A stretch of 48,684 nucleotides of DNA from a virus. Its lineage: Duplodnaviria; Heunggongvirae; Uroviricota; Caudoviricetes. The position numbers were made by a program, and so were the translations under genes. Positions within the stretch are counted from its first letter, which is position 1; every line of letters begins with the position of its first letter. This document shows positions 2,638 to 18,386 of the stretch, piece after piece. Location: IMG/VR virus record IMGVR_UViG_2923302340_000001; one strand, given 5' to 3'. The notes beneath the pieces are model-generated. The model was not told the DNA's origin and ran no database searches. It saw only the letters and a program-made list of their open reading frames with translations.

Positions 2638-2639
2638 TT

Positions 2640-3260: not shown

Positions 3261-3724
3261 TTGTGGGTATGCTTGGTACAATGCCTTTTGTTGCCTCATC
3301 AATAGTAGTGAATACGTTCAACAATTTTAAAAGGACGTCAAAGCGTCGTGTAGCGCGCCATGATGTTATTGGGCTTAAACCTGTTCTGGAGGATATAGGT
3401 CCAGATCTGGATGAAGTTAGTTTTAATATGCGGTTGGATACAACACTTGGCATTGTTCCATTGGCTACGCTTTCATTACTTAGGACGATGCAATCAATTC
3501 AGGAAGTAAATCCTGTTGTAATTGGTATTCAGTATTTTGGTAATTTTATAATTACAGATATAGAGGAATCATGGACTTATTTCGGTCCAACTGGGAATCC
3601 GCGAGTGATTATCGTCGGCATTAAATTACAGGAAGTCGGACAGACCTCTCTGAAAGAAGCATTAGTTGATATTGCTGGCAATATAGAGTCAAAAACTAGA
3701 AGTGCGTTAGGTAAATTATTATGA
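3257..3724 (+). CDS. baseplate/tail protein, family not recognised
   Basis: 155-aa ORF with overlapping stop/start on both sides inside the baseplate operon. Confidence 0.3.
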   Translation: MIVGMLGTMPFVASSIVVNTFNNFKRTSKRRVARHDVIGLKPVLEDIGPDLDEVSFNMRLDTTLGIVPLATLSLLRTMQSIQEVNPVVIGIQYFGNFIITDIEESWTYFGPTGNPRVIIVGIKLQEVGQTSLKEALVDIAGNIESKTRSALGKLL

Positions 3725-4041
3725 ATAATACGTTTACCATATTATCACCTTCTTACTCGATTGATTGGTCGCCCAAAACAGTTGTAGAAGAAGTTTTGCA
3801 AAATGTCTCTACTATTATTAACACTCAGATTGGCACTGTACCATATGCCAGAAAATTAGGAGTTAATTCAAGTCTTGTTGATAGCCCCAGTCCAATTTTT
3901 ATTGCTACAGCAACACGAGAAATAATTCAAAAAATTAGTGAGTTTGAGCCTAGAGCGATTATCCATTCTGTTACTTTTGAAAGAACGGACGTTTCTGATG
4001 GTTTTATTAGGCCAAAACTTGTGATAGGAGTTAGAGAATGA
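3721..4041 (+). CDS. baseplate wedge protein (gpW/gp25-like)
   Basis: 106 aa immediately upstream of the J-like gene; size and position typical. Confidence 0.5.
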   Translation: MNNTFTILSPSYSIDWSPKTVVEEVLQNVSTIINTQIGTVPYARKLGVNSSLVDSPSPIFIATATREIIQKISEFEPRAIIHSVTFERTDVSDGFIRPKLVIGVRE

Positions 4042-5162
4042 CGTTGCCGCGTGGTGGTTTGCCAGATATTACTTTCGCAGATTCTAACCCGACTGATATA
4101 ACAACTCGTTCAATCAGGGCTTTTGAGAGTATAACAGGTGAAACATTAGCACCTGCTGATCCACGTAGATTATTCATCTTATCATTGTGTGAGATTATTA
4201 TACAGCAAAGAAAAGCTATCGATTTTTCTGCAAAACAAAACCTTCTTACATATGGTGAAGGTGAATATCTCGACCATATAGGCTATCTGACGGATACGCC
4301 TAGGCTGGAAGCTCAATCTGCCTTGACTACATTTGAGTTTAATCTGTCAACAAAATTATCGGGGATATATACAATACCTGCTGGCACTCAAGTTTCAACT
4401 GGAAATGGTGTTATTTTCCAAACAGATATTTTGTTGGAAATACCTGCTGGGAAAACAGTTGGTACAGTCTCAGGATATGCTGTTATACCTGGTTTATCTG
4501 GGAATGGCTTTTTACCAGGGCAAATAAATGAGTTGGTGACTCCGTTGCCGTATGTTTCCAGCGTAAGGAATGTAACAACATCTAATTCTGGTGCTGATAC
4601 GGAGTCAGATGATAATTATGCTGAAAGAATAAAACTGTCGCCGGAAAAACTGTCTACAGCAGGGCCGGAGGATTCTTATAAATATTGGACAAGAACAGCC
4701 AATCAGAATATAAAAGATGTGAATGTATATACACCATCGCCCGGAATTGTAGAAATCCGTTCTTTGTTAGAGAACGGAGATATACCTTCTGATGAACTAT
4801 TAGAGCAGATAAATAGCGTTCTCTCTGCAACTAATATTCGACCATTCACAGATAAAGTTCTTGTTAAGAAACCAGAGAGCATTGAATACGATATAATAAT
4901 TAAATACTGGATTAACTCATCGGACAAAAACAGAACAACTTTAATTCAAAGTGAGGTTGAGAAAGCTATTGATGAGTATAAACAATGGCAACGTTCGGTT
5001 ATGGGAAGAGATATAAATCCAGATGAAATTATTCAACGTTTAAAAAATGCTGGGGCTAAAAGATTAGAAATATCAAGTCCTGTTTTTACTGTGGTTGGAG
5101 AGACACAGGTCGCCAGAGAGAGAAATATAAATTGCCAGTATGCGGGGTTAGAGGATGGCTGA
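4038..5162 (+). CDS. baseplate protein J-like
   Basis: 374 aa; 4-nt overlaps with neighbours; conserved position before gpI-like and fibre genes. Confidence 0.65.
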   Translation: MTLPRGGLPDITFADSNPTDITTRSIRAFESITGETLAPADPRRLFILSLCEIIIQQRKAIDFSAKQNLLTYGEGEYLDHIGYLTDTPRLEAQSALTTFEFNLSTKLSGIYTIPAGTQVSTGNGVIFQTDILLEIPAGKTVGTVSGYAVIPGLSGNGFLPGQINELVTPLPYVSSVRNVTTSNSGADTESDDNYAERIKLSPEKLSTAGPEDSYKYWTRTANQNIKDVNVYTPSPGIVEIRSLLENGDIPSDELLEQINSVLSATNIRPFTDKVLVKKPESIEYDIIIKYWINSSDKNRTTLIQSEVEKAIDEYKQWQRSVMGRDINPDEIIQRLKNAGAKRLEISSPVFTVVGETQVARERNINCQYAGLEDG

Positions 5163-5736
5163 TATCTTTAATGTTAGCTTGTTGGATGTTTTACCTCCTA
5201 ACTTAGCTAGCGATCCCAACGTGATAGCTATGTCGAAAGCTATCGATGATGAACTACAAGCAATTAACAATTTAATATATAAGACAGAAATATATAGCGT
5301 TGTTGATAACCTGGATTCAGTTGTCCTCGATCATTTAGCTTGGCAATGGAATGCTGATACATGGAGGGATAGTTGGCCTGTATCGTTAAAGCGTTCTGTT
5401 TTCAAATCAATAATACGAACAAAGCGAATAAAGGGTACAAGGGCAGCGGTTGAAGATGTAGTAAATAGCTTGGGGGGAGAGGTAAACATAATAGAATGGT
5501 TTGAAACATCACCACCTGGCGAACCATATACAGCCTCAATTGTTGCTTCGATTAACTCTTTTGATGGTGCCGTTCCTTCGAAAGAGATGTTGGAAGATAC
5601 GTTAAGAAGTATCAAGAGCGCAAAGTCGGCAAGAACATTATTTACATTTTCGCAAGCAGCCAATGTTTCTGGTGGTGTCGGTATTGTTGGTGCTTGTCAG
5701 CCTGTGTCTTATATACGATTAATTGGCGAGTGTTAA
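5155..5736 (+). CDS. tail protein I-like (P2 gpI family)
   Basis: 193 aa; N-terminus ...LLDVLPPNLASDPNVIAMSKAIDDEL... resembles gpI family. Confidence 0.55.
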   Translation: MADIFNVSLLDVLPPNLASDPNVIAMSKAIDDELQAINNLIYKTEIYSVVDNLDSVVLDHLAWQWNADTWRDSWPVSLKRSVFKSIIRTKRIKGTRAAVEDVVNSLGGEVNIIEWFETSPPGEPYTASIVASINSFDGAVPSKEMLEDTLRSIKSAKSARTLFTFSQAANVSGGVGIVGACQPVSYIRLIGEC

Positions 5737-5766
5737 TTCGCAATTTGTTTATTCAAGGAATTAAGC

Positions 5767-7656
5767 GTGAGTAAATTATTATTTACGATGACTGACGCCG
5801 GGCGTCAGGAGTTGGTTAATGCCAACAAAACAGGAACAAATAAAGTTGAGATTGTTTCTGTTGGTTTAGGTGGTAGATATTATGTCACGTCAACCTCACA
5901 AACAAATATAACAAACGAAATAAAACGACTTACCACAATAGGTGGCAAAGTTGTTTCCCCTGATACAATTCATGTAACGGCGAAGGATGATAGTAAAGAT
6001 GAGTATGTTGTCCATACAATAGGATTGTATACAAATAAGGGAACGTTGTTTGCTGTATACTCGCAAGAACAAGCAATAATAAATAAAGCATCATCTACTA
6101 TTGCTTTAATATCAAGTGACATAGCAATCAAGACTCTTGATACTAAAAATATTATATTTGGTGATATTGAGTTTATTAATCCTCCCGCGACCGAAACTGT
6201 TGTTGGGGTTGCAAGATTTGCTAATGAACAAGAAATTGATGCAGGTACAGATGATTCCCTTGCTGTTTCAGCAAAGCGGCTTAAGCAAGCCATTGTGAAA
6301 CATGAGCAATCACGTAATCATCCTGATGCAACTTTAACCTCAAAAGGCTTTGTTCAACTTAGCAGCGCCACCAATAGCACGTCTGAAACGCTTGCTGCGA
6401 CGCCTAAGGCTGTTAAGGCAGCATATGACCTGGCTAACGCTAAATACACCGCACAGGACGCTACCACTGCGCGGAAAGGGATTGTTCAGCTCAGTAGTGC
6501 CACCAATAGCACGTCTGAAAAGCTAGCAGCAACACCAAAGGCTGTTAAGGAAGCGTATGATCTTGCGGCCGGAAAGGCTCCTTCCAATCACACGCATTCG
6601 TGGGATCAGATTACAAATGTGCCTGTAGCTTCACTGACAGTAAGAGGAATCACTCAGCTTAGTAGCGCCACCAATAGCACGTCTGAAAAGCTAGCAGCAA
6701 CACCAAAGGCTGTTAAGGAAGCGTATGATCTTGCGGCCGGAAAGGCTCCTTCCAATCACACGCATTCGTGGGATCAGATTACAAATGTGCCTGTAGCTTC
6801 ACTGACAGTAAGAGGAATCACTCAGCTTAGTAGCGCCACCAACAGCACGTCTGAAACTCTGGCTGCGACACCGAAAGCTGTTAAGGTGGTAATGGATGAA
6901 ACAAAAAAGAAAGCCCCCCTCAACAGTCCGGCTCTGACTGGAACGCCAACAACGCCAACAGCACCAAATGGGACTAATAATACTCAGATCGCAAGCACAG
7001 CTTTCGTTATGGCTGCGATTTCCGCACTTGTAGACTCGTCACCTGACGCACTGAATACGCTGAACGAGCTGGCCGCCGCGCTTGGTAATGATCCAAATTT
7101 TGCAACCACCATGACTAACGCGCTTGCGGGTAAGCAACCGAAGGATGCCACCCTGACGGCGCTGGCAGGACTTGCTACAGCAGCAGATAAACTCCCTTAT
7201 TTTACAGGGGCAGATCGTGCCGCGTTAACCGCACTGACAAGTGTTGGACGTGCCATTCTTAGTAAGCCCAGCACACAGGGGGTTCTTGATTACCTTGGTT
7301 TACGAGAAGCGGCAAAACGGGATGTAGGGACAGGAGCAAATCAGATACCTGATATGAGTTTATTCGCGTCAATTAATACCGTAACGGCTGCTGCGCAAAA
7401 ATTTCCGTCTGGATTAATTTTACAGTGTGGCCAGTTGAATGGTGCCCCGAATGTATCTTCAACATACGGGATGAGGTTCCCGATGACGTTCTCAAGAGTC
7501 ATTGCTGTCGTAGTTACATTGAACGTTACTGGCGCGGCAGGGCAGCCGACTGTATCGGCGACAAATGTCCAGAACACTGGATTTGATATTACAGTGTCGC
7601 CCGGTTCAGGATATGGTTCATCTGCTGATGCGTATTACATTGCAATGGGATATTAA
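5767..7656 (+). CDS. tail fibre protein (constant N-terminal part plus currently expressed C-terminal cassette)
   Basis: GTG start; 629 aa; repeated ...[26 protein letters not shown]... fibre repeats; hix-like crossover site inside the coding region at 7283..7308. Confidence 0.8.
6487..6822 (+). repeat. near-perfect tandem duplication (2 x 168 bp) inside tail-fibre gene
   Basis: 6487..6654 and 6655..6822 differ at 2 positions; flanked by diverged copies of the same 56-codon unit. Confidence 0.9.
7283..7308 (+). other. candidate recombinase crossover site (hix/gix-like) inside fibre gene
   Basis: TTCTTGATTACC TT GGTTTACGAGAA: 26 bp with imperfect dyad, close to Hin hixL consensus as recalled. 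Confidence 0.5.
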
Positions 7657-7660
7657 CGAA

Positions 7661-8080
7661 ATGTCATATTTTTATTCTGCATCGACAAACGGATTTTATT
7701 CGACTGAATTTCACGGCACCAATATTCCTGATGATGCAGTGGAAATCTCGGAATCAGAGTGGAAAACACTGATTAATTCACAGAGTGTCACAAAAATGAT
7801 TACCTGTGGTGAGGACGGTCACCCTGTCATTGTTGACCGTCCTTCTCCAACACCAGAACAATTAGCCTTAATAAATGATGAAAAGAAATCTGCACTGATA
7901 GCAGAAGCAACGAATGTAATAGCGCCGCTTCAGGATGCGGTTGATTTAGGTATGGCAACAAATGATGAAACGAAACTGTTACTGGCATGGAAAAAATATC
8001 GCGTGCTATTGATGCGTATTAATACTTCAACAGCACTCGATATTGAATGGCCTACGCCTCCGGCAGTTCAGGCCAGATGA
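7661..8080 (+). CDS. tail fibre assembly chaperone
   Basis: ATG 5 nt after fibre stop; C-terminus ...[28 protein letters not shown] typical of fibre assembly proteins (track start 7565 overlaps fibre gene). Confidence 0.7.
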
Positions 8081-8654
8081 CATCCGGCGCTGTGCTGGTA
8101 TCTGTTGCCGTCACCGCGTCAATGTAATCCAGCACAGCGTTAAGGCGGGTTGTTTCTGCCTGCGTCAGCTTTCGCCCAGCCTGTAATTTCAGTTGAATCA
8201 GACTAATGGAAGCCATTGCAGCATCAATCAGTGACTGGCGCTGTGCTTCTGCCGCTTCTACTGCGGCACCGTGTTGTGCCTCAACATCCGTCACCCATTT
8301 CTCACCATCCCATTTATCGTATGGCGTTAACGGGGCGATAGTGGTTGTATTTTCAGGATAGTCGCCCGGTGCAGTTATTTCTTTGGCGTCACCCGTTTCG
8401 GTGTTATAGACGATTTCACCACGATGGTCTGGCACATATTCCCATGAATTTAAATCCACAGAACGGCAGATTGCATAACCAGCCTTATGTATGCCGGGGG
8501 CATCTAAACAAGAATATGCCGGAATACCAACACCTACCGCAAGATATTCAGTTGATGCGGAAATATATTCCTTTGTCTCACTGTCATAGTTGTAAACGAT
8601 GATGTTTCCTTCCTGTACGGCAATAAGTTCATTATTCAATATCGCGCTATTCAT
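8052..8654 (-). CDS. tail fibre assembly chaperone, alternative cassette
   Basis: 200 aa; C-terminus ...[24 protein letters not shown]; convergent with 7661..8080. Confidence 0.7.
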
Positions 8655-9104
8655 TATGCAGCTCTCACAATATAGTTAAATGCAATATTTCTCGGACGGG
8701 TTTCACGCCCACCAGGAATTTGAAAAGCATTAGCGGTTGTAGATCCGCCTTCCTGATTAATTCCTGTTGTATAAATACCACTCACACCATTTTGCAATGC
8801 AAATACTGTTGCGGTTCCAGGCCCACCACCGGGCCCAAAATACTTAAGTTCGAACTTTTTAATATCATCACTCTGAATATTCAATAAAGCACGTCCTGTA
8901 TCAATGCCGCGTCCATCATCCCAGCCACGAATAAACTCACCGCGTAAATCAGGAAGTTTTCCTGACGGGTATGCTTTGGCAAGAGTTGGATATTTCACCT
9001 TATCAAAGGCAGCACCGTTGCATTTCAGCCAGCCCGTTGGAGGGGTTGCGGAGGGCCACGGAACAGGTACACCAACAGGCAGCGCCGAACCTTCCCCAAA
9101 CCAA
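8654..9104 (-). CDS. promoterless alternative tail-fibre C-terminal cassette B
   Basis: Shares a 232-bp direct repeat (8881..9112 vs 9367..9599) including the crossover-like site with cassette A; no ATG; motif KYPTLAKAYPSGKLPDLRGEFIRGWDDGRGID; ends ...RPRNIAFNYIVRAA. Confidence 0.45.
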
Positions 9105-9116
9105 CGTTTTTATGCA
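9091..9116 (-). other. candidate crossover site (cassette B)
   Basis: Plus strand CTTCCCCAAACC AA CGTTTTTATGCA; minus strand carries the TTGGTTT core in inverted orientation relative to 7283..7308; overlaps stop of cassette A. Confidence 0.4.
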
Positions 9117-9640
9117 GCCCTCACGATAAAGTTAAATGCAATATTTCGTGGACGGGTTTCACTCCCGCCAGTATTACCGATACTCCCTCGTGAATGAAGT
9201 GTCGGTGATGGAATCAGAGTTCCTCCGGCATCGGCAGCATCAAGCCCCCGGCCTTGCGTATATGCTCTTCTGAAGATTGTCGCCAGTTCCCATTCCTCTT
9301 TTGAATCATACCCATCGTTGGCAACAACAATATGGCGGTGTTTTTCCAGCATCCCAGTCTGAATGCTCAATAAAGCACGTCCTGCATCAATACCACGCCC
9401 GTCATCCCAGCCACGAATAAACTCACCGCGTAAATCAGGAAGTTTTCCTGACGGGTATGCTTTGGCAAGAGTTGGATATTTCACCTTATCAAAGGCAGCA
9501 CCGTTGCATTTCAGCCAGCCCGTTGGAGGGGTTGCGGAGGGCCACGGAACAGGTACACCAACAGGCAGCGCCGAACCTTCCCCCAAACCAACGTTTTTAA
9601 CTTCGTGAACTGAGCTATCTAATAGCATTTTCACTAACAT
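9110..9640 (-). CDS. alternative tail-fibre C-terminal cassette A
   Basis: 176-aa ORF; codons downstream of the crossover-like site are in the frame needed for fusion to the fibre constant part (...DYL | GLGEGSALPVGVPVPW...). Confidence 0.5.
   Translation of the reverse strand: MLVKMLLDSSVHEVKNVGLGEGSALPVGVPVPWPSATPPTGWLKCNGAAFDKVKYPTLAKAYPSGKLPDLRGEFIRGWDDGRGIDAGRALLSIQTGMLEKHRHIVVANDGYDSKEEWELATIFRRAYTQGRGLDAADAGGTLIPSPTLHSRGSIGNTGGSETRPRNIAFNFIVRAA
9578..9603 (-). other. candidate crossover site (cassette A)
   Basis: Plus strand TTCCCCCAAACC AA CGTTTTTAACTT; minus strand AAGTTAAAAACG TT GGTTTGGGGGAA; 45 bp from invertase start. Confidence 0.45.
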
Positions 9641-9647
9641 AAACGGG

Positions 9648-10217
9648 ATGCTTTTTATGCAAATTGGCTATATTCGCGTATCAACAAATGACCAGAATAC
9701 AGATTTACAACGTAATGCTCTGAACTGTGCAGGATGTGAGCTGATTTTTGAGGATAAAATCAGTGGAACGAAGTCAGCCAGACCGGGATTGAAAAAACTG
9801 CTCAGAACGTTATCAGAAGGAGACACGCTGGTTGTCTGGAAGCTGGACAGGTTGGGTAGAAGCATGAAACACCTGATCACTCTTATTGAGGAACTACGGG
9901 AAAAAGGTGTTAATTTCCGTAGTCTGACGGACAGCATTGATACATCAACCCCTATGGGGCGTTTCTTTTTTCACGTCATGGGGGCTTTAGCAGAAATGGA
10001 GCGTGAATTAATTGTTGAGAGAACATTGGCTGGACTGGCAGCAGCTCGCGCACAGGGCCGCATTGGTGGGCGCCGCCCGAAGCTGACAAAAGAACAGCAT
10101 GAGCAAATAGCAAGGCTGATTAAAAACGGTCACGAGAGGAAACAACTGGCGATCATTTACGACATTGGTATATCAACGATTTATCGCTATCACCCTGTAG
10201 GAAGTGATTCAGCTTAA
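9648..10217 (+). CDS. DNA invertase, Hin/Gin/Cin/Pin-type serine recombinase
   Basis: N-terminus (M)QIGYIRVSTNDQNTDLQRNAL, ...TLVVWKLDRLGRSMKHL..., ...GRFFFHVMGALAEMERELIVERT..., C-terminal HTH; alternative ATG at 9657. Confidence 0.9.
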   Translation: MLFMQIGYIRVSTNDQNTDLQRNALNCAGCELIFEDKISGTKSARPGLKKLLRTLSEGDTLVVWKLDRLGRSMKHLITLIEELREKGVNFRSLTDSIDTSTPMGRFFFHVMGALAEMERELIVERTLAGLAAARAQGRIGGRRPKLTKEQHEQIARLIKNGHERKQLAIIYDIGISTIYRYHPVGSDSA

Positions 10218-10420
10218 ACAGGAAGATAGTTTTTCCTGCGATGATGCCCTATCTACGCTTTACCGCAGGTTTCCGGCTGGGAATCATTGACTGGAGTTAG
10301 GCCAGTAGTATGATGCTCGCAACACGAGATCCGATTTAGATCCTTTTACTGGTGGATTATCGTTCGATTAGCGAGAGACTTCGTGCATGACCGAAAGTGT
10401 TGTGGTAGAGTTCTCTTAAA

Positions 10421-10435
10421 ACCACGTAACGTGGT
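10421..10435. promoter_or_regulatory. ACCAC-N5-GTGGT palindrome (same motif as cI-cro operators) upstream of replicon
   Basis: ACCACGTAACGTGGT, perfect 5-bp arms with 5-bp spacer. Confidence 0.35.
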
Positions 10436-10475
10436 TACGATTGTGGGTGTCTGGTTGGAAACTGACCAGATATGG

Positions 10476-10600
10476 AAACAAAAAGCCCGCAGATAAATCT
10501 GCGGGCTTCTTGCGACATCCACGGAAAACCAACAAAACAATCCATGGGCGCCTCGACAACTCCCATTATACGTTGGTTTTCCGTGGACGCAAGAGCGAAC
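10476..10600 (-). ncRNA. candidate antisense RNA (CopA-like) opposite the repA leader
   Basis: Minus-strand intrinsic terminator (GCCCGCAG-ATAAAT-CTGCGGGC then T-run, 10476..10506) and 15-bp perfect stem 10519..10533 / 10572..10586 directly upstream of repA start. Confidence 0.3.
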
Positions 10601-10602
10601 AT

Positions 10603-11451
10603 ATGGATAGACCAATGCCGTCTCTACGTTCAGCTTACGTTTGTAATTTGTCGCCGGAGTTCCAGCCTCCAAAGCACCATACGCACAAGCTGCCGCTGGT
10701 GTTATCTGATGCTTTACAGCGCATTTATGGGCGTGATCTTACGTGTGAGGTTGCGTTCTACGTTAATCAACCGTCAGAGCGGAAGCGCCGGATAAACGAG
10801 CATCGTCGTCGGGCGATTAATGCTGTGATTGCTGCGATTTTGCACCATGTAAACATCATTTCTAAGCGGGTTCTGGCCAGTGCTGAGGCGTTGGCTGATT
10901 TTTGCGGCCTGTCTACCGTATCCGAAGCTGGGAACAAATCTATAACGCGCTGTACAAGGGCGTTGTCGCAACTGAAAGCGTTAGGTTTTATTGATTATGA
11001 ACGTCGCTGGGATCGGGTGAATAAACAGTATTGGCCAGCGAAAATAGAGATTCGTGATCAACTGCTGGAAACAGTTGGTATTACTGAACAAGCATGGAGA
11101 CGTGCGGTTAGCCAGAAACTTAATTACTTCAATGCGAAGAATAGCGAACGGCTTAAAAAAGCGATAACGGAGGCTGATTATAAGCGTATTGTTATTCAGG
11201 AGCAGATGGAGAATGTATGGCGTCAGAGGAAGACGGCCAGAGAGATAAAGGCAAAACAGAAAGCAGCGGAGAGAGCTGCGCGTCTTGTTCGGGAAAAGGG
11301 AGAGGCCGAACTTCGTCATCAAATCACTAGAGAGGTTAGCCAGGAATTTGCTGATGGCATGTATCCAGGTGCTGACCTTGCATATTTACGCTCCCTCGTT
11401 GATCAGCGTTATAACAGGCTAAGAAAGACCTGGACATCACTCCAACATTAA
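10603..11451 (+). CDS. repA: replication initiator RepA, IncFII RepA1-like
   Basis: ...RRRAINAVIAAILHH...CGLSTVSEAGNKSITRCTRALSQLKALGFIDYER... resembles RepA1 of IncFII plasmids (recollection); track start 10441 is an in-frame upstream extension; ATG at 10603 or 10615. Confidence 0.7.
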   Translation: MDRPMPSLRSAYVCNLSPEFQPPKHHTHKLPLVLSDALQRIYGRDLTCEVAFYVNQPSERKRRINEHRRRAINAVIAAILHHVNIISKRVLASAEALADFCGLSTVSEAGNKSITRCTRALSQLKALGFIDYERRWDRVNKQYWPAKIEIRDQLLETVGITEQAWRRAVSQKLNYFNAKNSERLKKAITEADYKRIVIQEQMENVWRQRKTAREIKAKQKAAERAARLVREKGEAELRHQITREVSQEFADGMYPGADLAYLRSLVDQRYNRLRKTWTSLQH

Positions 11452-11486
11452 CCCACCTGAATGATGAATCCGGTTTTACCGGAGGA

Positions 11487-11700
11487 TTATCCACGTCGCA
11501 ATAAAATAGCTGTTCAAAAAACAAGCTAAATTAATTTTCTCTAAACCTGAACACAGCGAAAATATCGTCTTTACAGGCATCAACTAATCAAGTTATCCAC
11601 AGTTTTGATATGTATATGCAAATGGTTTTTTATAATAGATGCACTAAACAAATAAATGCAAAATCACTTTCTTTTATTAAAACTTTCTTTATTTAACTTA
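11487..11700. other. putative plasmid origin (oriR-like)
   Basis: DnaA-box-like TTATCCACG (11487..11495) and perfect TTATCCACA (11593..11601) followed by ~100 bp AT-rich DNA, directly downstream of repA. Confidence 0.4.
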
Positions 11701-11703
11701 CGC

Positions 11704-11895
11704 AGGCTTTGCCTGTGAATATGTTCGCCCTTGCAGCGAGCTAAAGCTCGCGCCGGTTCGAGTCGCTACGCTCAAATATACCTCCTCCGGCAGCTGCCGG
11801 AGGCATGGAGTAGCCTGATCATCCTTTTCGAAACGGCGCGTTTCGAACTATACAAAATCAATTTATATAAGGCCGAAATAAGGCCTACGGCCGGG
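11704..11895. repeat. cluster of GC-rich palindromes/hairpins
   Basis: GCGAGC-TAAA-GCTCGC (11736..11751), perfect 20-bp palindrome CCTCCGGCAGCTGCCGGAGG (11784..11803), TTCGAAAC-GGCGC-GTTTCGAA (11827..11847), GGCC..GGCC (11871..11885). Confidence 0.6.
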
Positions 11896-12082
11896 CTTTG
11901 CAGGAGGAAGGGGCGAGCATTATCAATAAACGTCGATAAATACGCACACAGTAGCCATCAGAACGCGATAAAACGTAAGAAACATCATTTCCTATTAGAC
12001 ATAGAAAACTTGTCTTATACGCAATGTAGTAAATTTCTATTGCCACATAGGAAAAGATTTCCTATCATCGTAGATATAATAA

Positions 12083-12382
12083 ATGGAGATGGTTATGGAT
12101 AAAGATACTGTTTTAAAAATGTTGAATCCGGCTTGTTTAAAAAAAGCGGATGAATGGGAATCTCCTACATGTGGAGAAGTTCGGGCAGTCATTGGCCTGA
12201 CCGGAATGAGCGGCTCGCAGTTGGCCAAAAAACTTGGCTTAAAAGATAGTCGCAATGTTCGCAACTGGCAGATGTTAAAGGAGTCCACATCCAGATCCAG
12301 CATTCCGTATGCAGCCTGGGCGCTGCTGTGTTACTTCGCTGGATTAGGGTTAATCTTCATTGATAACAAAACAGATGTTTGA
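12083..12382 (+). CDS. hypothetical protein with HTH-like segment and hydrophobic C-terminus
   Basis: 99 aa; ...GLTGMSGSQLAKKLGL... HTH-like; C-terminal ...AAWALLCYFAGLGLIF. Confidence 0.3.
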   Translation: MEMVMDKDTVLKMLNPACLKKADEWESPTCGEVRAVIGLTGMSGSQLAKKLGLKDSRNVRNWQMLKESTSRSSIPYAAWALLCYFAGLGLIFIDNKTDV

Positions 12383-12669
12383 AACATGCAAATATGAGGT
12401 TTGTTATGGAACTTGTACGCAAAACACGCAAAGAGTTCTTGGACCTGTATCGCATGGGAGCTTTCACTTGTGTTGTGGCTACCCAGGACGAAGTGACAAA
12501 AAGCTGGCGGCTTTTTGCTCTCAATAAAAAAGGGATTGCCGTTTTCATTGAAAAAGCCCGTGGTGGTATCCGCGAATGGGCTGGATTGAATTATGTGGCT
12601 GATTTTTGCGCAGCTATGGGGATTCGGCGCTGGGAAGTCCATATGCCAGGAGTAAAGTCACAAAAATAG
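12379..12669 (+). CDS. hypothetical protein
   Basis: TTG start in track; ATG alternatives at 12394 and 12406 (GAGG 7 nt upstream of 12406). Confidence 0.3.
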   Translation: MKHANMRFVMELVRKTRKEFLDLYRMGAFTCVVATQDEVTKSWRLFALNKKGIAVFIEKARGGIREWAGLNYVADFCAAMGIRRWEVHMPGVKSQK

Positions 12670-12859
12670 GGCTTTCGCGTCGAAAATGAGGCGAAACTGA
12701 AAACGAGATTTTATTAACAAATAAGCAACATAAAAAACGGTGGAAAACGCCCAGGAAAACATGATCTTTTGAGCGGATTTTTTAGATCCGACAATGAACG
12801 GTGATCCGATGGTGCCGATAACGTCCATTATGTTAAATAGCCCCGTTTTTCTTGAAATT

Positions 12860-12903
12860 ATAACCTACGGGTTATATAGTTAGTGATATAAACTACAGGT
12901 TAT
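12860..12903. promoter_or_regulatory. palindromic operator-like sites upstream of toxin-antitoxin operon
   Basis: ATAACC-TACG-GGTTAT (12860..12875) and degenerate repeat TATAAAC..GGTTATA just before the toxin start. Confidence 0.3.
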
Positions 12904-12913
12904 AGGATTGAGC

Positions 12914-13261
12914 ATGTGGACGGTACTTTTTAGCCAGCGATTTGACGACTGGCTAAATGAGCAAGAAGACGCTCTTCAGGAAAAGGTTTTGGCTGATTTG
13001 AAAAAGCTACAGGTTTACGGACCTGAGTTACCCAGGCCATATGCCGATACCGTAAAAGGTTCTCGGTACAAAAATATGAAAGAGCTTCGCGTTCAGTTTT
13101 CTGGCCGTCCGATAAGAGCCTTTTATGCGTTCGATCCGATTCGCCGGGCCATCGTTCTTTGTGCAGGAGACAAAAGTAACGATAAGCGGTTTTATGAAAA
13201 ACTGGTGCGTATAGCTGAGGATGAGTTTGCAGCACATCTGAACACACTGGAGAGCAAGTAA
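12914..13261 (+). CDS. type II toxin, RelE/HigB-like (addiction-module killer)
   Basis: ...GSRYKNMKELRVQFSGRPIRAFYAFDPIRRAIVLCAGDK...; toxin-first order; stop overlaps antitoxin ATG (TAATG). Confidence 0.55.
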   Translation: MWTVLFSQRFDDWLNEQEDALQEKVLADLKKLQVYGPELPRPYADTVKGSRYKNMKELRVQFSGRPIRAFYAFDPIRRAIVLCAGDKSNDKRFYEKLVRIAEDEFAAHLNTLESK

Positions 13262-13560
13262 TGAGAACATTAGATGAGGTGATTGCCAGCCGTTCACCTG
13301 AAAGCCAGGCGCGAATTAAAGAAATGGCAGATGAGATGATTCTTGAGGTCGGCTTGCAGATGATGCGTGAAGAACTCCAGTTATCACAAAAACAGGTTGC
13401 TGAGGCGATGGGTATAAGCCAGCCAGCAGTAACAAAGCTGGAGCAGCGCGGAAATGATTTAAAGCTGGCGACATTAAAGCGTTACGTTGAAGCTATGGGA
13501 GGCAAATTAAGCCTGGATGTTGAGCTTCCTACAGGAAAGCGAGTAGCGTTCCATGTCTAA
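13261..13560 (+). CDS. HigA-like HTH antitoxin (XRE family)
   Basis: 99 aa; HTH ...SQKQVAEAMGISQPAVTKLE... Confidence 0.55.
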   Translation: MRTLDEVIASRSPESQARIKEMADEMILEVGLQMMREELQLSQKQVAEAMGISQPAVTKLEQRGNDLKLATLKRYVEAMGGKLSLDVELPTGKRVAFHV

Positions 13561-13568
13561 CATAATGT

Positions 13569-13587
13569 AAGGCCCCATTGGGGCCTT
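13569..13587. terminator. bidirectional intrinsic terminator
   Basis: AAGGCCCC-ATT-GGGGCCTT between convergent genes. Confidence 0.5.
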
Positions 13588-13593
13588 ACTTAT

Positions 13594-13878
13594 TTACTTA
13601 CCATTTTTGCGGTTTTTTTCGGACTTCATAAGCTGGCTAACGCGCCCTGGTGTGATATTTAACATGCGGCTTACTTCAGCTTGTGATCCTACTTCCTCTA
13701 CTAGCGATGCAACATAGCGAGATTTTCCTGAGGAGGTTAATCCATTATATGTTGCTCGTACGACTTTTCCCTGAGCTTCTCTCATATCAACTAATGCCTG
13801 AGCAACCTGCTCAAAACCTTTAATTGTTACTTCTGTTAATGCTCGAATAGCATCAATTTCAGATTTTTGTTTAGCCAT
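13594..13878 (-). CDS. small HTH DNA-binding protein
   Basis: ATG at 13878 (MAKQKSEIDA...); ...SQAEVSRMLNITPGRVSQLM... HTH. Confidence 0.4.
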   Translation of the reverse strand: MAKQKSEIDAIRALTEVTIKGFEQVAQALVDMREAQGKVVRATYNGLTSSGKSRYVASLVEEVGSQAEVSRMLNITPGRVSQLMKSEKNRKNGK

Positions 13879-13925
13879 TTGGCACCTCAAATTGTTTAAA
13901 ATGTGTTAATTACAAAATTCAGCCG

Positions 13926-13944
13926 ATACCATGTTCAATGGTAT
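13926..13944. promoter_or_regulatory. palindrome ATACCAT-GTTCA-ATGGTAT upstream of 13594..13878
   Basis: 7-bp perfect arms in the promoter region of the minus-strand HTH gene. Confidence 0.3.
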
Positions 13945-14034
13945 AGCATTGCTGAAATGTCTTTTTCAAGACCTTGCCAATAAGCTAAACAAAAATGTTT
14001 AATGCTTCGCCTAAAAAAACACCAGTTACTATTA

Positions 14035-14145
14035 TTTATATAATTATAGATTTATATAAAAAGTGCTTTACATGTGGGAAAAAATTTCCTAAGGTTATAC
14101 CCGAAACCGAGCGATACCCGCCCTGGTTAAACCGGAGATAACCCG
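14035..14145 (+). promoter_or_regulatory. repeated promoter/leader cassette, copy 1
   Basis: ~110 bp nearly identical to 23415..23525 and 30666..30775: AT palindrome, TTTATATAAA, TTTACA-17 nt-TAAGGT, conserved leader ACCCGAAACCGAGCGATACCCGCCCTGGTTAAACCGGAGA, then ATG. Confidence 0.45.
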
Positions 14146-14526
14146 ATGAGCATGATTAAAATCCGCAAAAACGCTTTCCTTAAAATTCAAACTATCCTGG
14201 CTGGTTCTGTTGGCGTGATTTGCCGTTCTTCCTCAAGCCGCATCGATGACGGCTACGATGATGAGTATCGTGTGTCCTCATGCGATGAGGCTTTAACCTG
14301 GCTGAAGGAGAATCAGGAACGTGCCCAGGTATATCTGGAAACAGAGAACGGCAATCAGATGCTGCGTATTAGCGGTCGTTATGGATTTGAAACTACATTC
14401 ATGGCCTATTTTAATCAGGCTTACTTTGACAAGGAGTTGGCTTGGTACACTGATCGCATGAGCAAAAGCGAGCCAGCCCCGATTACACCGCCGAACAATA
14501 AACCATTTTTATTCCTCGTTAAGTAA
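14146..14526 (+). CDS. hypothetical protein (first gene behind cassette copy 1)
   Basis: 126 aa; no motif recognised. Confidence 0.35.
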   Translation: MSMIKIRKNAFLKIQTILAGSVGVICRSSSSRIDDGYDDEYRVSSCDEALTWLKENQERAQVYLETENGNQMLRISGRYGFETTFMAYFNQAYFDKELAWYTDRMSKSEPAPITPPNNKPFLFLVK

Positions 14527-14534
14527 ACACAATG

Positions 14535-14561
14535 CGCAAAGTGTCATTTTGACACTTTGCG
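14535..14561. promoter_or_regulatory. 27-bp palindrome CGCAAAGTGTCA-TTT-TGACACTTTGCG
   Basis: 12-bp perfect arms, between 14146..14526 and the HTH gene. Confidence 0.4.
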
Positions 14562-14589
14562 AGTGTTAATATTGTGCGAGGAGGGTGCT

Positions 14590-14862
14590 ATGACGGGTTA
14601 TGAATTGAAATTATGGCGTCGTGGGATGAACTGGACGCAGGAGCGAGCCGCCGAAGAATTTGGGATATCGTTGGCTACATATAAGCGATATGAGAAGGGG
14701 GAGCCGCCGAGGGTCATTGAGATGGCCATTCGCGTTCTGTCGTTTGACGATATGGTGAAGGATCTTTCACACCTTGATAAAGACGCGATTCTGTTAAGGC
14801 TGCAAACCCTTGTATGGGAAAAGGTTAAAGTGTCGTCAGAATTGGAACAAGGGATCAAATGA
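14590..14862 (+). CDS. XRE-family HTH protein
   Basis: AGGAGG-type RBS upstream of ATG 14590; ...WTQERAAEEFGISLATYKRYEKG... Confidence 0.45.
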   Translation: MTGYELKLWRRGMNWTQERAAEEFGISLATYKRYEKGEPPRVIEMAIRVLSFDDMVKDLSHLDKDAILLRLQTLVWEKVKVSSELEQGIK

Positions 14863-14910
14863 TCCTTTACGGATCGTTTTATGGTGGTGTAATGTAAGCG
14901 CCAGAAAGAC

Positions 14911-14936
14911 AAAAACCGCCTTGCCGGGCGGTTTTC
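14911..14936. terminator. bidirectional intrinsic terminator
   Basis: AACCGCC-TTGCCG-GGCGGTT flanked by A5 and T4. Confidence 0.55.
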
Positions 14937-15497
14937 AGTCTGAAATTTAAATCTTGCTTGGTAGGCTGGATTTAAAAAGACACCTCTTGATTGGGGCGGC
15001 TTTCTTGCGTCTAAAGATAATCAAATCTTTTTGCGCCTGCAACCCCTTTTTTACTGGTGCCCATTTCAGACTCACGCTCGCGTCGTTGTCTTTGCCACTT
15101 CGTTGGGTTCGGTGTTTTTGGGCGAAGTGGCGCGCGGGTATGCGTACAAGGGGAAAGTGTGCTGACGCAAGCCAGGAACAGCGATCTAAACTAAGTCGAG
15201 TCTGAGAAAGGCAGGAGTGCGACAACTCGCCTGTGCTCTATGAGCAGAAGAAGGTATATCAGACGACCAATGGCATGATTGTGGGCCACAGGGCGCACAC
15301 GGCGGCGAAGCATTGGAAACGATGTGGAGCTATCTGGTGGCATGAGTTCCGGTACTCGATCTCGAGCTTTTTTTGATGCTTTTGAGAAGGGGCCGGAACT
15401 CCGGTAAAGGGCACCCTGTATGGGGGGAGGGGGGGTTGTGTCTAAAGGAAGATCCAATACGATATTGCTTTACCCTTATATCTAAAAGGAGATTTCT

Positions 15498-16133
15498 ATG
15501 GGGATGCTGGTGGCGTTTATTATTAGCCTGATTTTGTGTTTCTTCGTAGTTCGTGGTGCATATCGGAAACAATGTGGCCCATCTTCTGGTAGTAAGTTCA
15601 AAGCTGTTTTAGTGAGTGGGTTTCTTGGGATTGCTACTTTTGTTGTTGTTAATACTCTTGCTGCTGTGGCCTTGATTCCAGAAGACTCCGGCACTACGGC
15701 TACTACCGGAGCTGCTTTCGATGGCGTGACCGTAGATAAGTTTAAGCAGCTATATAATGATGACCTTGAAGGTATCGCTACATCAGGAAAATCCACCTCC
15801 ACTATAAGAATTAAGTCAGTTAAACAAGGTAACAACACCGTTGAATTTGCCATCAATTCATCTGTTAACGGTCGAGCTAGAGTTGATAAGGATGGGAAGA
15901 TTTCAGAGTTATTATGGCGAGTATCTAAGCCTAGCTCTGATTCCTTGCTTTCTATGGCCGTAGCTGTTGAAGTCTTGGATGCATCAAGTGATAGAGACAC
16001 AGTGATCGCGCAGTTAGAGCAGATTGTTAAATCTGATACGCAGAAAGCTGAGTTTAAGACTAAGAGAGGCGAGTATTACGTTTCTCGTGACAAATCAGGG
16101 CACGTGTCGCTACTGATTACACCGAAATATTAA
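15498..16133 (+). CDS. membrane-anchored protein, unknown function
   Basis: AAAGGAG RBS; N-terminal hydrophobic helix LVAFIISLILCFFVV plus a second hydrophobic stretch; rest hydrophilic. Confidence 0.4.
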   Translation: MGMLVAFIISLILCFFVVRGAYRKQCGPSSGSKFKAVLVSGFLGIATFVVVNTLAAVALIPEDSGTTATTGAAFDGVTVDKFKQLYNDDLEGIATSGKSTSTIRIKSVKQGNNTVEFAINSSVNGRARVDKDGKISELLWRVSKPSSDSLLSMAVAVEVLDASSDRDTVIAQLEQIVKSDTQKAEFKTKRGEYYVSRDKSGHVSLLITPKY

Positions 16134-16144
16134 GAATTGAAGAA

Positions 16145-16169
16145 GCGCCCAAATCGGGCGCTTTGTTTT
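16145..16169. terminator. intrinsic terminator
   Basis: GCGCCC-AAATC-GGGCGC followed by TTTGTTTT. Confidence 0.5.
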
Positions 16170-17310
16170 ATGGTTTTGCACCTGCGGCCAGTTTATCCGC
16201 AGATATCTTTATCAGTTCCTGTAGTGTCCTGGCTGGTAGGTTTGCATCCAGTACGCTGAGTATGCTGTTGTGATCTGCCTGGTCGACTACTTTGCCTGTC
16301 GGTGGTAGTAGCTTGAGCTGAGGATTCAGGTTTTCGTCAAAGCTGATCAGTGCTCTGGCGTTTCTGAGCAGATCAAGAAGTAAGGCTGATATCACATCAT
16401 CTTTAGTCATTGTTGGTAGATTTAGTGCCGCTTTAGTTTTCTCCGTCGCCTTGTCAAACTCTTTGATTAGTGTCTTGCGGTAGTTTGGTTCCGTTAATAG
16501 CCGATGATGTTCTGTTGCCGTTCGGATAATCTTTGTTTCCTGATACAGTCGGTTGTATAGCATTCGCTCGTATTCTGCCTTTAACACGCTGCTGATAGCG
16601 TTAAAGGCTTCAATGTAGGCCAGCTTGATATCCTTCACGCCTGGACCGTCGATACTTTCCATGAGCAAGGTAAATCCGTCTTTTGTCATGCGATAGATTG
16701 TTATTTCGCGGTCGCTTCCTTCCAGCGGTCGTTGCTCTTTAAAGAAATGACGTGCCGCAGCTGTACGAGGAATGCGTAACGCATCGATGGCCATAACGAT
16801 GGAATTGTTTGTGGTGCTGAATGCCTGGGCTACATCGGCTGAGGTTGTGAGTGGCTCGTTGTTGCACACCTTAACGTAATACATTGGTTTGGCGTTGAGT
16901 GTATCGACAACCTCACGAGCATTGTTTGGCGAGACGGTTACGGTCGCGGCCGTTTGCGCGTTCTGGTTGAAATAGCAGTCTTCCAGCCGTTCGAATACAT
17001 CCCACGCCTGATCGGTTTCGAGCATTTTAGCGTGACGTGCAGCCCCGCGTTCGGTCCAGAGAATTAGGGAGCGGGCATTTTTACCAACTAACCCGATTGT
17101 TTCGGGTCTGTTCTTGAACTCGCGTAATTCGTTTTTTTCAATTTTAAAGTAATGCTTTCCGGCTACGAATCGCGTCGTGTTGTTCAGAAAGTTATCAGAA
17201 ATGTTTTTGATTTTCGTTCCGTATAACTGCGCCAGAAGTTCACTAGTGATAACGGGGATCTGGTTATGCAGGATAGGCTGTAGGGTGTTAACGGTCGGAA
17301 GCGTTTTCAT
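16168..17310 (-). CDS. antirepressor-like protein (KilA-N/ORF6N-type N-terminal domain plus Rha-like domain)
   Basis: 380 aa; N-terminus ...PVITSELLAQLYGTKIKNISDNFLNNTTRFVAGKHYF...; domain calls by recollection. Confidence 0.55.
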   Translation of the reverse strand: MKTLPTVNTLQPILHNQIPVITSELLAQLYGTKIKNISDNFLNNTTRFVAGKHYFKIEKNELREFKNRPETIGLVGKNARSLILWTERGAARHAKMLETDQAWDVFERLEDCYFNQNAQTAATVTVSPNNAREVVDTLNAKPMYYVKVCNNEPLTTSADVAQAFSTTNNSIVMAIDALRIPRTAAARHFFKEQRPLEGSDREITIYRMTKDGFTLLMESIDGPGVKDIKLAYIEAFNAISSVLKAEYERMLYNRLYQETKIIRTATEHHRLLTEPNYRKTLIKEFDKATEKTKAALNLPTMTKDDVISALLLDLLRNARALISFDENLNPQLKLLPPTGKVVDQADHNSILSVLDANLPARTLQELIKISADKLAAGAKP

Positions 17311-17498
17311 TTTGCACCTCCCATAACTACTTTGGTTACGAGGGAGATTTTTGCGTCAGAAACAGCGTTATCGTTGCTGGCGATGCGCATAGCTTCGCGC
17401 TCGATGATTTCAGCCAGGCGGAATTTATCGGCGTATGAGGCTTTCTTGAGAAGGATCTTTACGAGGTTGACGTAATAGTCATGGGGTAAGTTTGTCAT
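17307..17498 (-). CDS. small protein translationally coupled upstream of antirepressor
   Basis: 63 aa; ATGA overlap with 16168..17310. Confidence 0.3.
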   Translation of the reverse strand: MTNLPHDYYVNLVKILLKKASYADKFRLAEIIEREAMRIASNDNAVSDAKISLVTKVVMGGAK

Positions 17499-17662
17499 GG
17501 TGATAGTTCCCTTAAAGGTTAAGGATACTCACCACCGTCTGGTTCCAATCATTGGGTGGTGAGACGTACAGGGTTGGAACTACCGGTCACCATGGAATCC
17601 GGCGAGTCTTACGACTCCCCCGCACGCCCCACCATAATTTGGGTGTAGCAGTGCTTTACGCA

Positions 17663-17683
17663 TAAAAAAACCGCTAACGCGGT
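17663..17683 (-). terminator. candidate intrinsic terminator (minus strand)
   Basis: ACCGC-TAAC-GCGGT followed on the minus strand by T7. Confidence 0.4.
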
Positions 17684-17828
17684 ATGCGCCATGATGATTA
17701 TCGGGGTTCCAATCCCGACCGTAGATTTTGCTACGGCTCGGAAAGTGTCCACCAATGGCGCATTCATGTCAATACGGCGGGATTTTAACAGAGACAACCA
17801 CATAGCGTGGGTTTATTGGTAGGCAGAA

Positions 17829-17857
17829 ACAAAAAAACCGCCCTATTGAGGACGGTT
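17829..17857 (-). terminator. candidate intrinsic terminator (minus strand)
   Basis: AACCGCCC-TATTGA-GGACGGTT followed on the minus strand by T7GTTT. Confidence 0.4.
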
Positions 17858-18234
17858 CTTTCGTGCTGATCGGATTCGCGGTCCTTTCAGCATTACGTTG
17901 TTGTATAAATACAACCACGCAAGCACAAACAGCGATCATATTCTTACCCAACTGAATAAAATTGTCCAAATAAATTTGGTTTATTAGAGCACAAAAGCGA
18001 GTGATTTTTGTGGTGTGTATTTAAGTTGATGAAAAACAATATGTTTTTATCCCTTCATTATGAAGGGGCTGCGGTGTAACATTACGCGGGGCCTTTTCGC
18101 CGATTCGCAACCGGGCACCGACTTTCAGGAAAGGATTATCCACTTGCCGTACCACGCAGGCACAAACAGCGTGCTTGCTCTCGCGTCATTTTCGTCGGTG
18201 GGGATGCCGTGAAACGGCCTGTAAGGGCCACACA

Positions 18235-18357
18235 ATGAAAAAATACTACATGTGTATTTTTATCGTTGTTACTGGAGCTTTGTTTACGCCACATGGGGAG
18301 GGTTGGAAGATTACTGATAACGCTCTGAATGTGACGATAAACATTAGCAGCAAGTAG
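18235..18357 (+). CDS. small hydrophobic peptide (40 aa)
   Basis: MKKYYMCIFIVVTGALF...; followed by a strong terminator. Confidence 0.2.
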   Translation: MKKYYMCIFIVVTGALFTPHGEGWKITDNALNVTINISSK

Positions 18358-18362
18358 CGATT

Positions 18363-18386
18363 AGGCCCCTTCGGGGGCTTTTTTTA
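18363..18386 (+). terminator. intrinsic terminator
   Basis: AGGCCCC-TTCG-GGGGC followed by T7. Confidence 0.6.

Follow-up and report, generated by a model that had tools for sequence, protein, structure and literature searches.

Sequence analysis of a C4-type antirepressor leader and a neighbouring timPR-like locus on a ~48-kb phage-plasmid

Introduction

Which elements occupy the long interval upstream of the antirepressor gene in the Caudoviricetes record IMGVR_UViG_2923302340_000001, and do they serve one regulatory purpose or several? The window, i.e. the whole stretch of DNA analysed here (48,684 nucleotides (nt), whose numbering is used throughout), is essentially an entire ~48-kb phage-plasmid. 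An initial annotation of this interval described a 670-bp non-coding leader in front of a small open reading frame (ORF) and the antirepressor gene ant. That interval instead comprises three RNA genes and, of a fourth transcript, the 5' part, distributed over both strands, while the antirepressor leader itself (~240 nt) is confined to 17772..17499. Very probably, the locus holds two independent RNA-based modules, placed back to back, and the phage-plasmid that carries them has a contractile tail. Judged by its sequence, module A (17772..16168, minus strand) is an antirepressor switch of the P1 immI/Gifsy-1 isrK type, whose RNA cassette is truly homologous to that of P1 while the protein cargo is not, and module B (17968..18385) is an unannotated copy of the divergent type I toxin-antitoxin locus timPR. 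Both are additional examples of RNA control systems already known, fairly ordinary and well explained, and they leave current concepts unchanged.

At 92-97% identity, the region matches dozens of Escherichia plasmids, which are ~48 kb in size and non-mobilizable, as well as three Yersinia myophages of 49 kb. In these relatives the RefSeq annotation is blank from the 63-aa ORF to a small gene beside parA, so that ~1.1 kb left empty across ~60 plasmid and three phage records in fact corresponds to four RNA genes and one toxin ORF.

IsrK and C4 RNAs in the antirepressor leader

The components of the antirepressor transcript are the following:

17744..17772, minus strand: inferred promoter of the IsrK-C4-orf63-ant transcript (TTGACA at 17772-17767, 17-nt spacer, GACACT at 17749-17744, start at ~17737)
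17664..17737, minus strand: IsrK, the c4-a1b1 leader small RNA (sRNA); Rfam isrK (RF01394), 70.2 bits, threshold 50
17552..17639, minus strand: C4 antisense RNA; Rfam C4 (RF01695), 84.3 bits, threshold 45, model positions 1-87 of 87
17529..17564, minus strand: alternative hairpin CUCACCACC/GGUGGUGAG, with site a2 in the loop and built in part from the 3' strand of the C4 closing stem
17307..17498, minus strand: 63-codon leader ORF (orf63); phrog_7886, positional analogue of P1 icd
16168..17310, minus strand: Ant antirepressor, 380 aa; ORF6N and Rha domains (Pfam), PHROG anti-repressor families

As both C4 and IsrK score above the Rfam gathering thresholds and the sites flanking C4 are complementary to it, the resemblance to P1 c4-icd-ant that had been suggested before is borne out for 17772..17307. 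The accompanying comparison with P22 sar-ant had to be abandoned, because neither a cis-antisense gene nor an Rfam sar match, be it at the gathering or at an E-value threshold, was found in the window, where the regulators share the strand of ant.

The intrinsic terminator of IsrK was recognized in a terminator scan (stem 17683-17670, U-run to 17663/4), and the minus-strand hairpin with U-run marked earlier at 17683..17663 is thus real and identical to it. C4 is placed ~24 nt after IsrK, and the mature RNA would span ~17633..17555 by analogy with P1. Since two models, c4-a1b1 as well as isrK, give a score on the a1/b1 region of P1, IsrK can be equated with the a1/b1-bearing leader. Upstream of isrK, the -35 TTGAC and the -10 hexamer occur at equal positions in 7 loci, including the annotated P1c4 promoter of P1.

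The stem CTCACCACC/GGTGGTGAG (17529-37/17556-64), which was pointed out in the initial annotation, forms in silico (-16.8 kcal/mol) and recurs in relatives: as read by eye from the sequences, 8 other loci have this hairpin too, and in P1 it shows compensatory changes (CCUGCCACC/GGUAGCAGG). Given that it shares the 3' strand of the C4 closing helix, exposes a2 in its loop and is conserved, it represents an alternative fold of the precursor.

Some gene callers lengthen orf63 to 95 aa across the C4 gene (17499-17640; proteins P0001, P0003, P0008; H34), and the extension matches Pfam PF10554 (Phage_ASH) and goes under the name 'ash family protein'. The label probably reflects translated conserved C4 RNA sequence and not a real protein domain, so that an annotation in which the C4 gene is misread as an N-terminal extension can be corrected.

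C4 recognition sites and their concerted variation

Six short sites on the minus strand connect C4 with its surroundings:

17712-17706, minus strand: a1, UUGGAAC, in the loop of IsrK hairpin 2; 7/7 bp with a'
17697-17689, minus strand: b1, UCAUCAUGG, in IsrK; 9 bp (1 G-U) with b'
17595-17587, minus strand: b', CCAUGGUGA, in the loop of C4 hairpin 2
17580-17574, minus strand: a', GUUCCAA, in the 3' bulge of C4; perfect complement of a1 and a2
17548-17542, minus strand: a2, UUGGAAC, at +4 nt after C4; 7/7 bp with a'
17496..17503, minus strand: b2, UCACCAUG, over the AUG (17498-17496) of the 63-codon ORF; 8 bp with b'

Complementarity between the candidate RNAs and the translation starts of orf63 or ant, which had been named as a check, is found for C4 and orf63 (z = -2.7, with 2 of 300 shuffles giving a duplex as good) but neither for C4 and ant, whose duplex is not significant against shuffles, nor for the TimR-like RNA of module B with either start. 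C4 and timP yielded nothing above chance.

Comparison between loci lends support. In the first 10 loci (IsrK was found in 9 of them), a1 as well as a2 can form a perfect helix of 7 bp with a' despite seven variable cores, and b' matches both b1 and b2; applied to P1, the site-finding method recovers the annotated sites. This triple match was found in Gifsy-1, an Stx2a phage, the Klebsiella phage Kp4865-1, PhiR12_1, SW-37 and the sister plasmids, with a varying 5-nt core. Three further loci bring the total to 13, representing at least nine recognition types, and all sites change together. Within the plasmid family itself two C4 specificity types coexist, as JE86p3 and pN32b display a second specificity in which all six sites are altered in concert (a' AGGCUAA, a1/a2 UUAGCCU, b' CAUUGUGU, b1 ACACGAUG, b2 CACAAUG). 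The heteroimmunity of P1 and P7, whose specificity variants differ by concerted changes, follows the same pattern. A cross-matrix of a' against a2 gave 7 bp for cognate and 3-6 bp for most non-cognate combinations, the exceptions being Gifsy-1/SW-37, which have a common a' core, and a single cell, P1 x SW-37, that reached 7 bp; the corresponding b-site matrix is noisy, with G-U pairs and a wide target zone allowed.

The sister plasmids also shuffle their modules (alignment A1: window, L003, L004, L005). E400634 combines the C4 specificity of the window with the timPR variant of pN32b, and pN32b carries the C4 specificity of JE86p3, which points to recombination between the two modules. Moreover, at three loci from Erwinia and another Enterobacteriaceae prophage the RNA before orf63 scores as sRNA-Xcc1 (RF02221) and not as C4 (L013 2376-2460, L016 2382-2465, L017 193-276). 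These RNAs likewise contain a'/b' complementary to flanking sites, and sRNA-Xcc1 appears to be a C4-type RNA under a separate Rfam family.

orf63 and the antirepressor Ant

Coupling of the small ORF to ant, as initially proposed, is well supported, since the orf63 stop overlaps the ant start (ATGA) and a GGAGG motif lies inside orf63, 7 nt before the ant ATG. The proteins themselves are unlike those of P1. No Pfam or NCBIfam match and no BLASTP alignment to P1 Icd was obtained for orf63, and BLASTP detected no similarity between Ant and P1 Ant1 (E > 7). The N-terminal ~150 aa of Ant are 72% identical to Gifsy-1 AnrP, an antirepressor that has been studied by experiment.

Homologues of orf63 number 39 in Enterobacterales, mostly 63 aa long. 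At all four additional loci inspected (from Erwinia, Hafnia and another Enterobacteriaceae isolate, one of them a short contig, L017, of the same region) a C4-type RNA, scoring as Rfam C4 or the related sRNA-Xcc1, precedes orf63; the a/b complementarities hold there, with b2 in or beside the ribosome-binding site of orf63. Three of these four (those of Erwinia and Hafnia and the short contig L017) also have orf63 overlapping by 4 nt an antirepressor gene, whose type varies (P22_AR_N or ORF6N), and at L016 a C4-type RNA is present with no antirepressor gene called. This variation of the antirepressor behind a C4-type RNA and orf63 indicates that the RNA cassette and orf63 constitute a portable control unit. 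The ratio of nonsynonymous to synonymous substitutions was uninformative for orf63, as the sister plasmids differ in 1-2 codons.

Proposed working of the switch

The identities, complementarities and co-variation of module A described above are observations, whereas RNA processing and repression are modelled on its homologues. Transcription would start at ~17737, and most transcripts would end at the IsrK terminator, giving a 74-nt IsrK with a1 and b1. Read-through transcripts would hold C4 and, beyond it, a2, b2, the 63-codon ORF and ant; C4 may be excised from them (by RNase P in P1) and its a' and b' would then pair with a2 and b2. Because b2 covers its AUG, the 63-codon ORF would remain untranslated, and ant, which starts within the stop of this ORF (ATGA), would be untranslated too; the ant transcript would probably be cut short by Rho, as in P1. 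IsrK, bearing the same a1/b1, would compete against the mRNA sites for C4, so that the balance between them would set the Ant level; with IsrK in excess, or with C4 lost, the antirepressor would be turned on and induction would begin. In P1, the leader ORF is kept from being translated by excised C4 paired with a2/b2, which in turn prevents ant translation and permits Rho termination (Citron & Schuster, 1990; Biere et al., 1992; Hartmann et al., 1995).

Several points weigh against this reading. The promoter in front of IsrK is too weak to register in a consensus promoter scan, with a poor -10 (GACACT); the Rfam c4-a1b1 model (RF03163) scores 38.2 bits on IsrK, under its threshold of 46.7; and the Rho-dependent polarity is borrowed from P1, given that orf63 and Ant are not homologous to Icd and Ant1. 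In addition, the mechanism published for Gifsy-1 stresses activation by IsrK via mRNA refolding and not repression by processed C4 (PMC4825925). There, G28/G31 of IsrK (in a1) pair with C162/C159 (in a'), and IsrK acting in trans activates the coupled translation of an upstream ORF and AnrP and contributes to prophage induction (PMC4825925).

A Gifsy-1-like working of the present locus is a possible but less favoured explanation. It would regard the C4-like segment as a structured part of the mRNA and not as a processed trans-acting repressor: the read-through RNA would be inactive through cis pairing of a1 with a' and b' with b2, until the short IsrK refolds it in trans. Genetics and native gels in Gifsy-1 favour refolding (PMC4825925). 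In the lowest-energy predicted fold of the 261-nt leader, the C4 fold is absent, b' pairs with b2 in cis and the hairpin with a2 in its loop forms; the AnrP-like N-terminus of Ant agrees with this explanation as well. On the other hand, the window is without an equivalent of orf45 inside C4, where reading the sequence by eye leaves only 8 codons open from the AUG at ~17631, and instead has a separate leader ORF after a2/b2, like P1. The C4 fold is furthermore strongly conserved (84 bits) and ends in a 3' ACCACC motif, as expected of a stable processed RNA, and Gifsy-1 itself shows a stable species, STnc1160. The two explanations overlap and differ solely in the active RNA species; we prefer the one in which C4 is excised and IsrK competes for it.

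P1/P7 immI (P51b promoter, a1 b1, c4, a2 b2, icd, ant1/2) has the same order of elements as the window. In both, the C4 fold is homologous, a' (7 nt) and b' (8-9 nt) are matched up- and downstream, and b2 is on the translation start of a small ORF that overlaps ant by ATGA. Unlike in P1, b2 of the window covers the AUG and not the Shine-Dalgarno (SD) sequence, the a1/b1 leader scores as IsrK over threshold and has a strong intrinsic terminator, a C1 operator was not identified in the window, Icd has no relative in the small ORF, and the antirepressor is of the ORF6N/Rha (AnrP-like) type and not Ant1/2; these elements reside on a 48-kb plasmid-prophage whose tail is P2-like, and not on a P1-like phage.

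The P4 CI RNA with seqA/seqC and the N15 anti-immunity CA RNA are also processed small RNAs that are flanked by complementary sequences and control downstream genes; these systems act chiefly via transcription termination, and the likeness to the window is drawn from their described organisation (P4 is cited in PMC4825925 as well).

With Gifsy-1 isrK-orf45-anrP-isrJ the window shares an IsrK over threshold followed ~24 nt on by a C4-type RNA (STnc1160 in Gifsy-1), and a1:a' pairing, which corresponds to helix b-I of Hershko-Shalev et al. 2016 (PMC4825925). Translation of the antirepressor is coupled to an upstream ORF in both, with the N-terminal domain 72% identical. Unlike Gifsy-1, the window has no orf45 in the C4 segment and a separate conserved 63-codon ORF instead, no isrJ Rfam match (one is present in both Gifsy-1 and SW-37), and no antQ upstream, and it is a plasmid-prophage and not an integrated lambdoid prophage. 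The locus is thus intermediate between the P1 and Gifsy-1 layouts and makes the equivalences of IsrK with a1/b1 and of STnc1160 with C4 explicit, whereby a single competition model (IsrK versus a2/b2 for C4) becomes testable in a small plasmid-prophage.

A divergent timPR-like locus

Upstream of the IsrK promoter lie the elements of module B, transcribed divergently:

17940..17968, minus strand: inferred promoter of the TimR-like sRNA (TGGACA, 17-nt spacer, AAGAAT; consensus scan)
17831..17933, minus strand: TimR-like antitoxin sRNA, ~103 nt; 70% identical over its full length to Escherichia coli K-12 TimR (b4811), z = 13
18077-18082, plus strand: probable -10 (TAACAT) of the timP mRNA; TAANAT in sister plasmids
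18087..18385, plus strand: timP (ryfA) toxin mRNA; Rfam ryfA (RF00126), 135 bits, threshold 80, model positions 1-296 of 296
18116-18122/18194-18200, plus strand: timP pseudoknot sites 1/3, CACCGAC/GUCGGUG, 7 bp
18146-18150/18214-18218, plus strand: timP sites 2/4 (SD-releasing pairing), GCCGU/ACGGC, 5 bp
18235..18357, plus strand: TimP-like hydrophobic peptide, 40 aa, MKKYYMCIFIVVTGALFTPHGEGWKITDNALNVTINISSK; 33% identical to K-12 TimP, E = 1e-6
18363-18380 and U-run, plus strand: timP terminator (terminator scan)

ryfA has since been identified as the mRNA of the toxin gene timP (PMC7667032), and the chromosomal DNA matches bear the annotation timP. Rfam has no family for the TimR-like RNA, which adopts the same three-hairpin fold as K-12 TimR. 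Its terminator (hairpin 17857-17838, U7 at 17837-17831) was missed by a simple terminator scan and revealed by folding, the 105-nt RNA ending there folding at z = -5.5. Accordingly, the second minus-strand hairpin of the initial annotation (17857..17829) is real, as folding and the U7 indicate, but it ends the TimR-like sRNA and does not belong to the antirepressor leader. The promoter hexamers of this sRNA keep their positions in sister plasmids though the flanks diverge (alignment A1). An RNAI-like match on the same RNA (27 bits, threshold 47) was discarded; it reflects a generic three-hairpin antisense shape and has no RNAII or origin context.

The 5' end of the TimR-like RNA (17934/3..17914) is complementary over 21 bp (1 G-U) to nt 65-85 of the timP mRNA (18151-18171, stem-loop 2; nt 64-83 in K-12). 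The timP 5' untranslated region (UTR) is its sole significant duplex target (z = -3.7). Although RNAduplex extends the TimR-like:timP pairing over ~85 nt, shuffled local alignment leaves the 21-nt core alone as significant. This core varies among three plasmid variants, on both sides each time (AAACAG, AAGCGG, AAGCAG), and in a TimR:timP cross-matrix the cognate pairs are best, with 20-21 bp. K-12 TimR and plasmid timP form 7 contiguous bp at most. The pseudoknot sites 1-3 and 2-4 occupy K-12-equivalent positions, with compensatory differences from K-12.

In its layout the locus resembles enterobacterial timPR, with divergent genes, a full-length ryfA, terminators on both genes, a ~40-aa peptide whose AUG is at mRNA nt 149 (147 in K-12), pairing of the TimR 5' end with stem-loop 2, and retention of sites 1-3 and 2-4 (PMC7667032, PMC11228461, PMC13000454); the K-12 annotation shows the same arrangement, with timR on the minus and ryfA and timP on the plus strand. 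Unlike the chromosomal locus, it resides on a phage-plasmid and not between sseA and sseB, has a spacer between the genes of 153 bp (400 bp in K-12), is related to it by ~70% nucleotide and 33% peptide identity, and carries a pairing core unmatched by chromosomal TimR (7 bp). All copies found of this timPR variant come from the ~48-kb phage-plasmid family, namely from 59 plasmid records and the three Yersinia phages.

Identity, complementarity and co-variation are directly visible in module B as well, and its toxicity and biological role are assigned after those of homologues. The minus-strand TimR-like sRNA would pair through its 5' 21 nt with stem-loop 2 of the divergent timP mRNA, and such pairing would, per the published model, block the pseudoknot-dependent translation of a small membrane toxin (PMC11228461, PMC13000454). 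Some findings detract from this assignment. The peptide matches the NCBIfam model toxic_TimP (NF040796) over the full length and with E = 1.2e-4, but with 22.2 bits against a cutoff of 45; the site 1-2 pairing of the 2026 timP model amounts to 4 bp and is weakly detectable in a naive search; and the Prokaryotic Genome Annotation Pipeline (PGAP) leaves the timPR locus unannotated in relatives. That the copy is a decaying, non-functional remnant, as the score of TimP under the curated cutoff and the lack of annotation in all relatives might suggest, is nevertheless unlikely: although the flanking intergenic DNA of the plasmids differs by up to 20%, their TimP ORF is intact and does not vary. The promoter hexamers, the terminators and the pseudoknot sites are likewise kept, as is the sRNA:mRNA pairing by way of compensatory change.

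As to the role of timPR on the plasmid, addiction is the most likely one we can infer, suggested by its position beside parA and its mismatch to host TimR; the presence of a RelE/ParE module in a close relative speaks against it. If true, addiction would be the first concrete, testable function for timPR. Tentatively, we speculate that timPR could be a post-segregational killing module kept mismatched to host TimR and hence non-neutralisable, and that the two C4 types could define heteroimmunity groups that govern which of these plasmid-prophages induce or exclude each other. In any case, a mobile timPR that is mismatched to the chromosomal copy and adjoins parA offers a natural system in which to ask what timPR is for.

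The K-12 timPR locus (L002 960-1290) has a second TimR-like copy beside the ryfA promoter as well as a truncated ryfA-like 5' fragment, which are jointly covered by Rfam IS128 (RF00125), the annotated timR being the distal copy. This layout looks as though it arose long ago by tandem duplication.

Direct repeats and the DnaA-like box

Two ~50-bp direct repeats and a DnaA-box-like sequence had also been noted in the interval. A repeat core of 21 nt is significant (17914-17934 versus 18151-18171, 20/21 identical, 237 bp apart), as the longest repeat with at most one mismatch measures 12.3 +/- 1.1 nt (maximum 15) in dinucleotide shuffles; its flanks (CTTTCAG, GATTCGC) are at chance level, with 143 of 500 shuffles scoring as well. 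The repeats belong to timPR, and the DNA copies look like a direct repeat because the 5' 21 nt of TimR are complementary to the timP mRNA. The DnaA-like TTATCCACT is present at 18136..18144, but as a single 8/9 box within the conserved timP 5' UTR, and thus part of the timP mRNA; it does not stand out from chance, for the whole window contains 54 DnaA boxes with at most one mismatch, compared with 53 +/- 7 expected.

Two 21-nt copies 237 bp apart with TTATCCACT between them might be taken for a replication origin with iterons or for a pair of protein-binding operators. We consider this scarcely credible. Besides the chance-level number of boxes, there are two copies only, of which copy 1 is the 5' end of the TimR homologue and copy 2, together with the box, falls inside the full-length ryfA match; the chromosomal timPR locus has the same repeat layout; the copies co-vary as RNA pairing predicts; and a RepA-like gene with the sole perfect DnaA box of the window (10441-11601) is found 6 kb off. 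The RepA-like ORF (336 aa, 10441-11451) matches the position of repA in the relative NZ_CP020497.1 and is followed by the perfect box TTATCCACA at 11593, with 8/9 boxes at 11487, 12094 and 12170. Together with these boxes (to 12178) it likely represents the plasmid origin.

Relationship between the two modules

The TimR-like RNA (17933..17831) has the same orientation as IsrK and is situated ~60 nt upstream of the IsrK promoter, and terminator read-through is conceivable. Could it be an extra regulator of orf63 or ant? This is very improbable, as shuffled targets give duplexes just as good as the translation starts of orf63 and ant do (z = +0.9 and +1.5), in contrast to the significant one with timP, and relatives carry a 190-aa helix-turn-helix (HTH) gene between the TimR-like RNA and the IsrK promoter. 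A 10-nt identity between the C4 gene and the timP coding region (AGGGTTGGAA; 17570-17579, 18299-18308), through which C4 a' could pair with the timP mRNA, was likewise rejected as a link: this length is expected by chance in 1.15 kb, and no co-variation is seen, the timP coding region being identical in JE86p3, whose a' differs. With cross-complementarity at chance, no co-variation in the a'/timP match and an HTH gene in between in relatives, we regard the two modules as separable neighbours.

The 190-aa HTH regulator gene occurs in many relatives, including Yersinia phage vB_YpM_39 (in the E. coli ATCC 25922 plasmid, L011, at 2052-2624), and is missing from the window, where its place would be at ~17815-17830. 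The 3' end of this gene directly adjoins the TimR hairpin. Being flanked by an A-tract and, on its opposite side, by a U-tract, the hairpin looks bidirectional.

Genomic surroundings

A close relative of the window has genes for terminase, portal, capsid, contractile tail, baseplate, RepA, ParA and the RelE/ParE pair mentioned above. On the minus strand beyond timP, a gene for an 82-aa protein (phrog_6024, without Pfam match) at 18608-18856 and one for a ParA-family ATPase at 18900-19568 are a probable partition operon adjoining timP. Between this operon and the timP terminator lies a conserved 60-aa ORF (18396-18578, minus strand), which is invariant in sister plasmids. The phage-plasmid additionally contains a tRNA-Met (CAU) gene at 29693-29768 (plus strand), identified by Rfam (65.8 bits) and ARAGORN.

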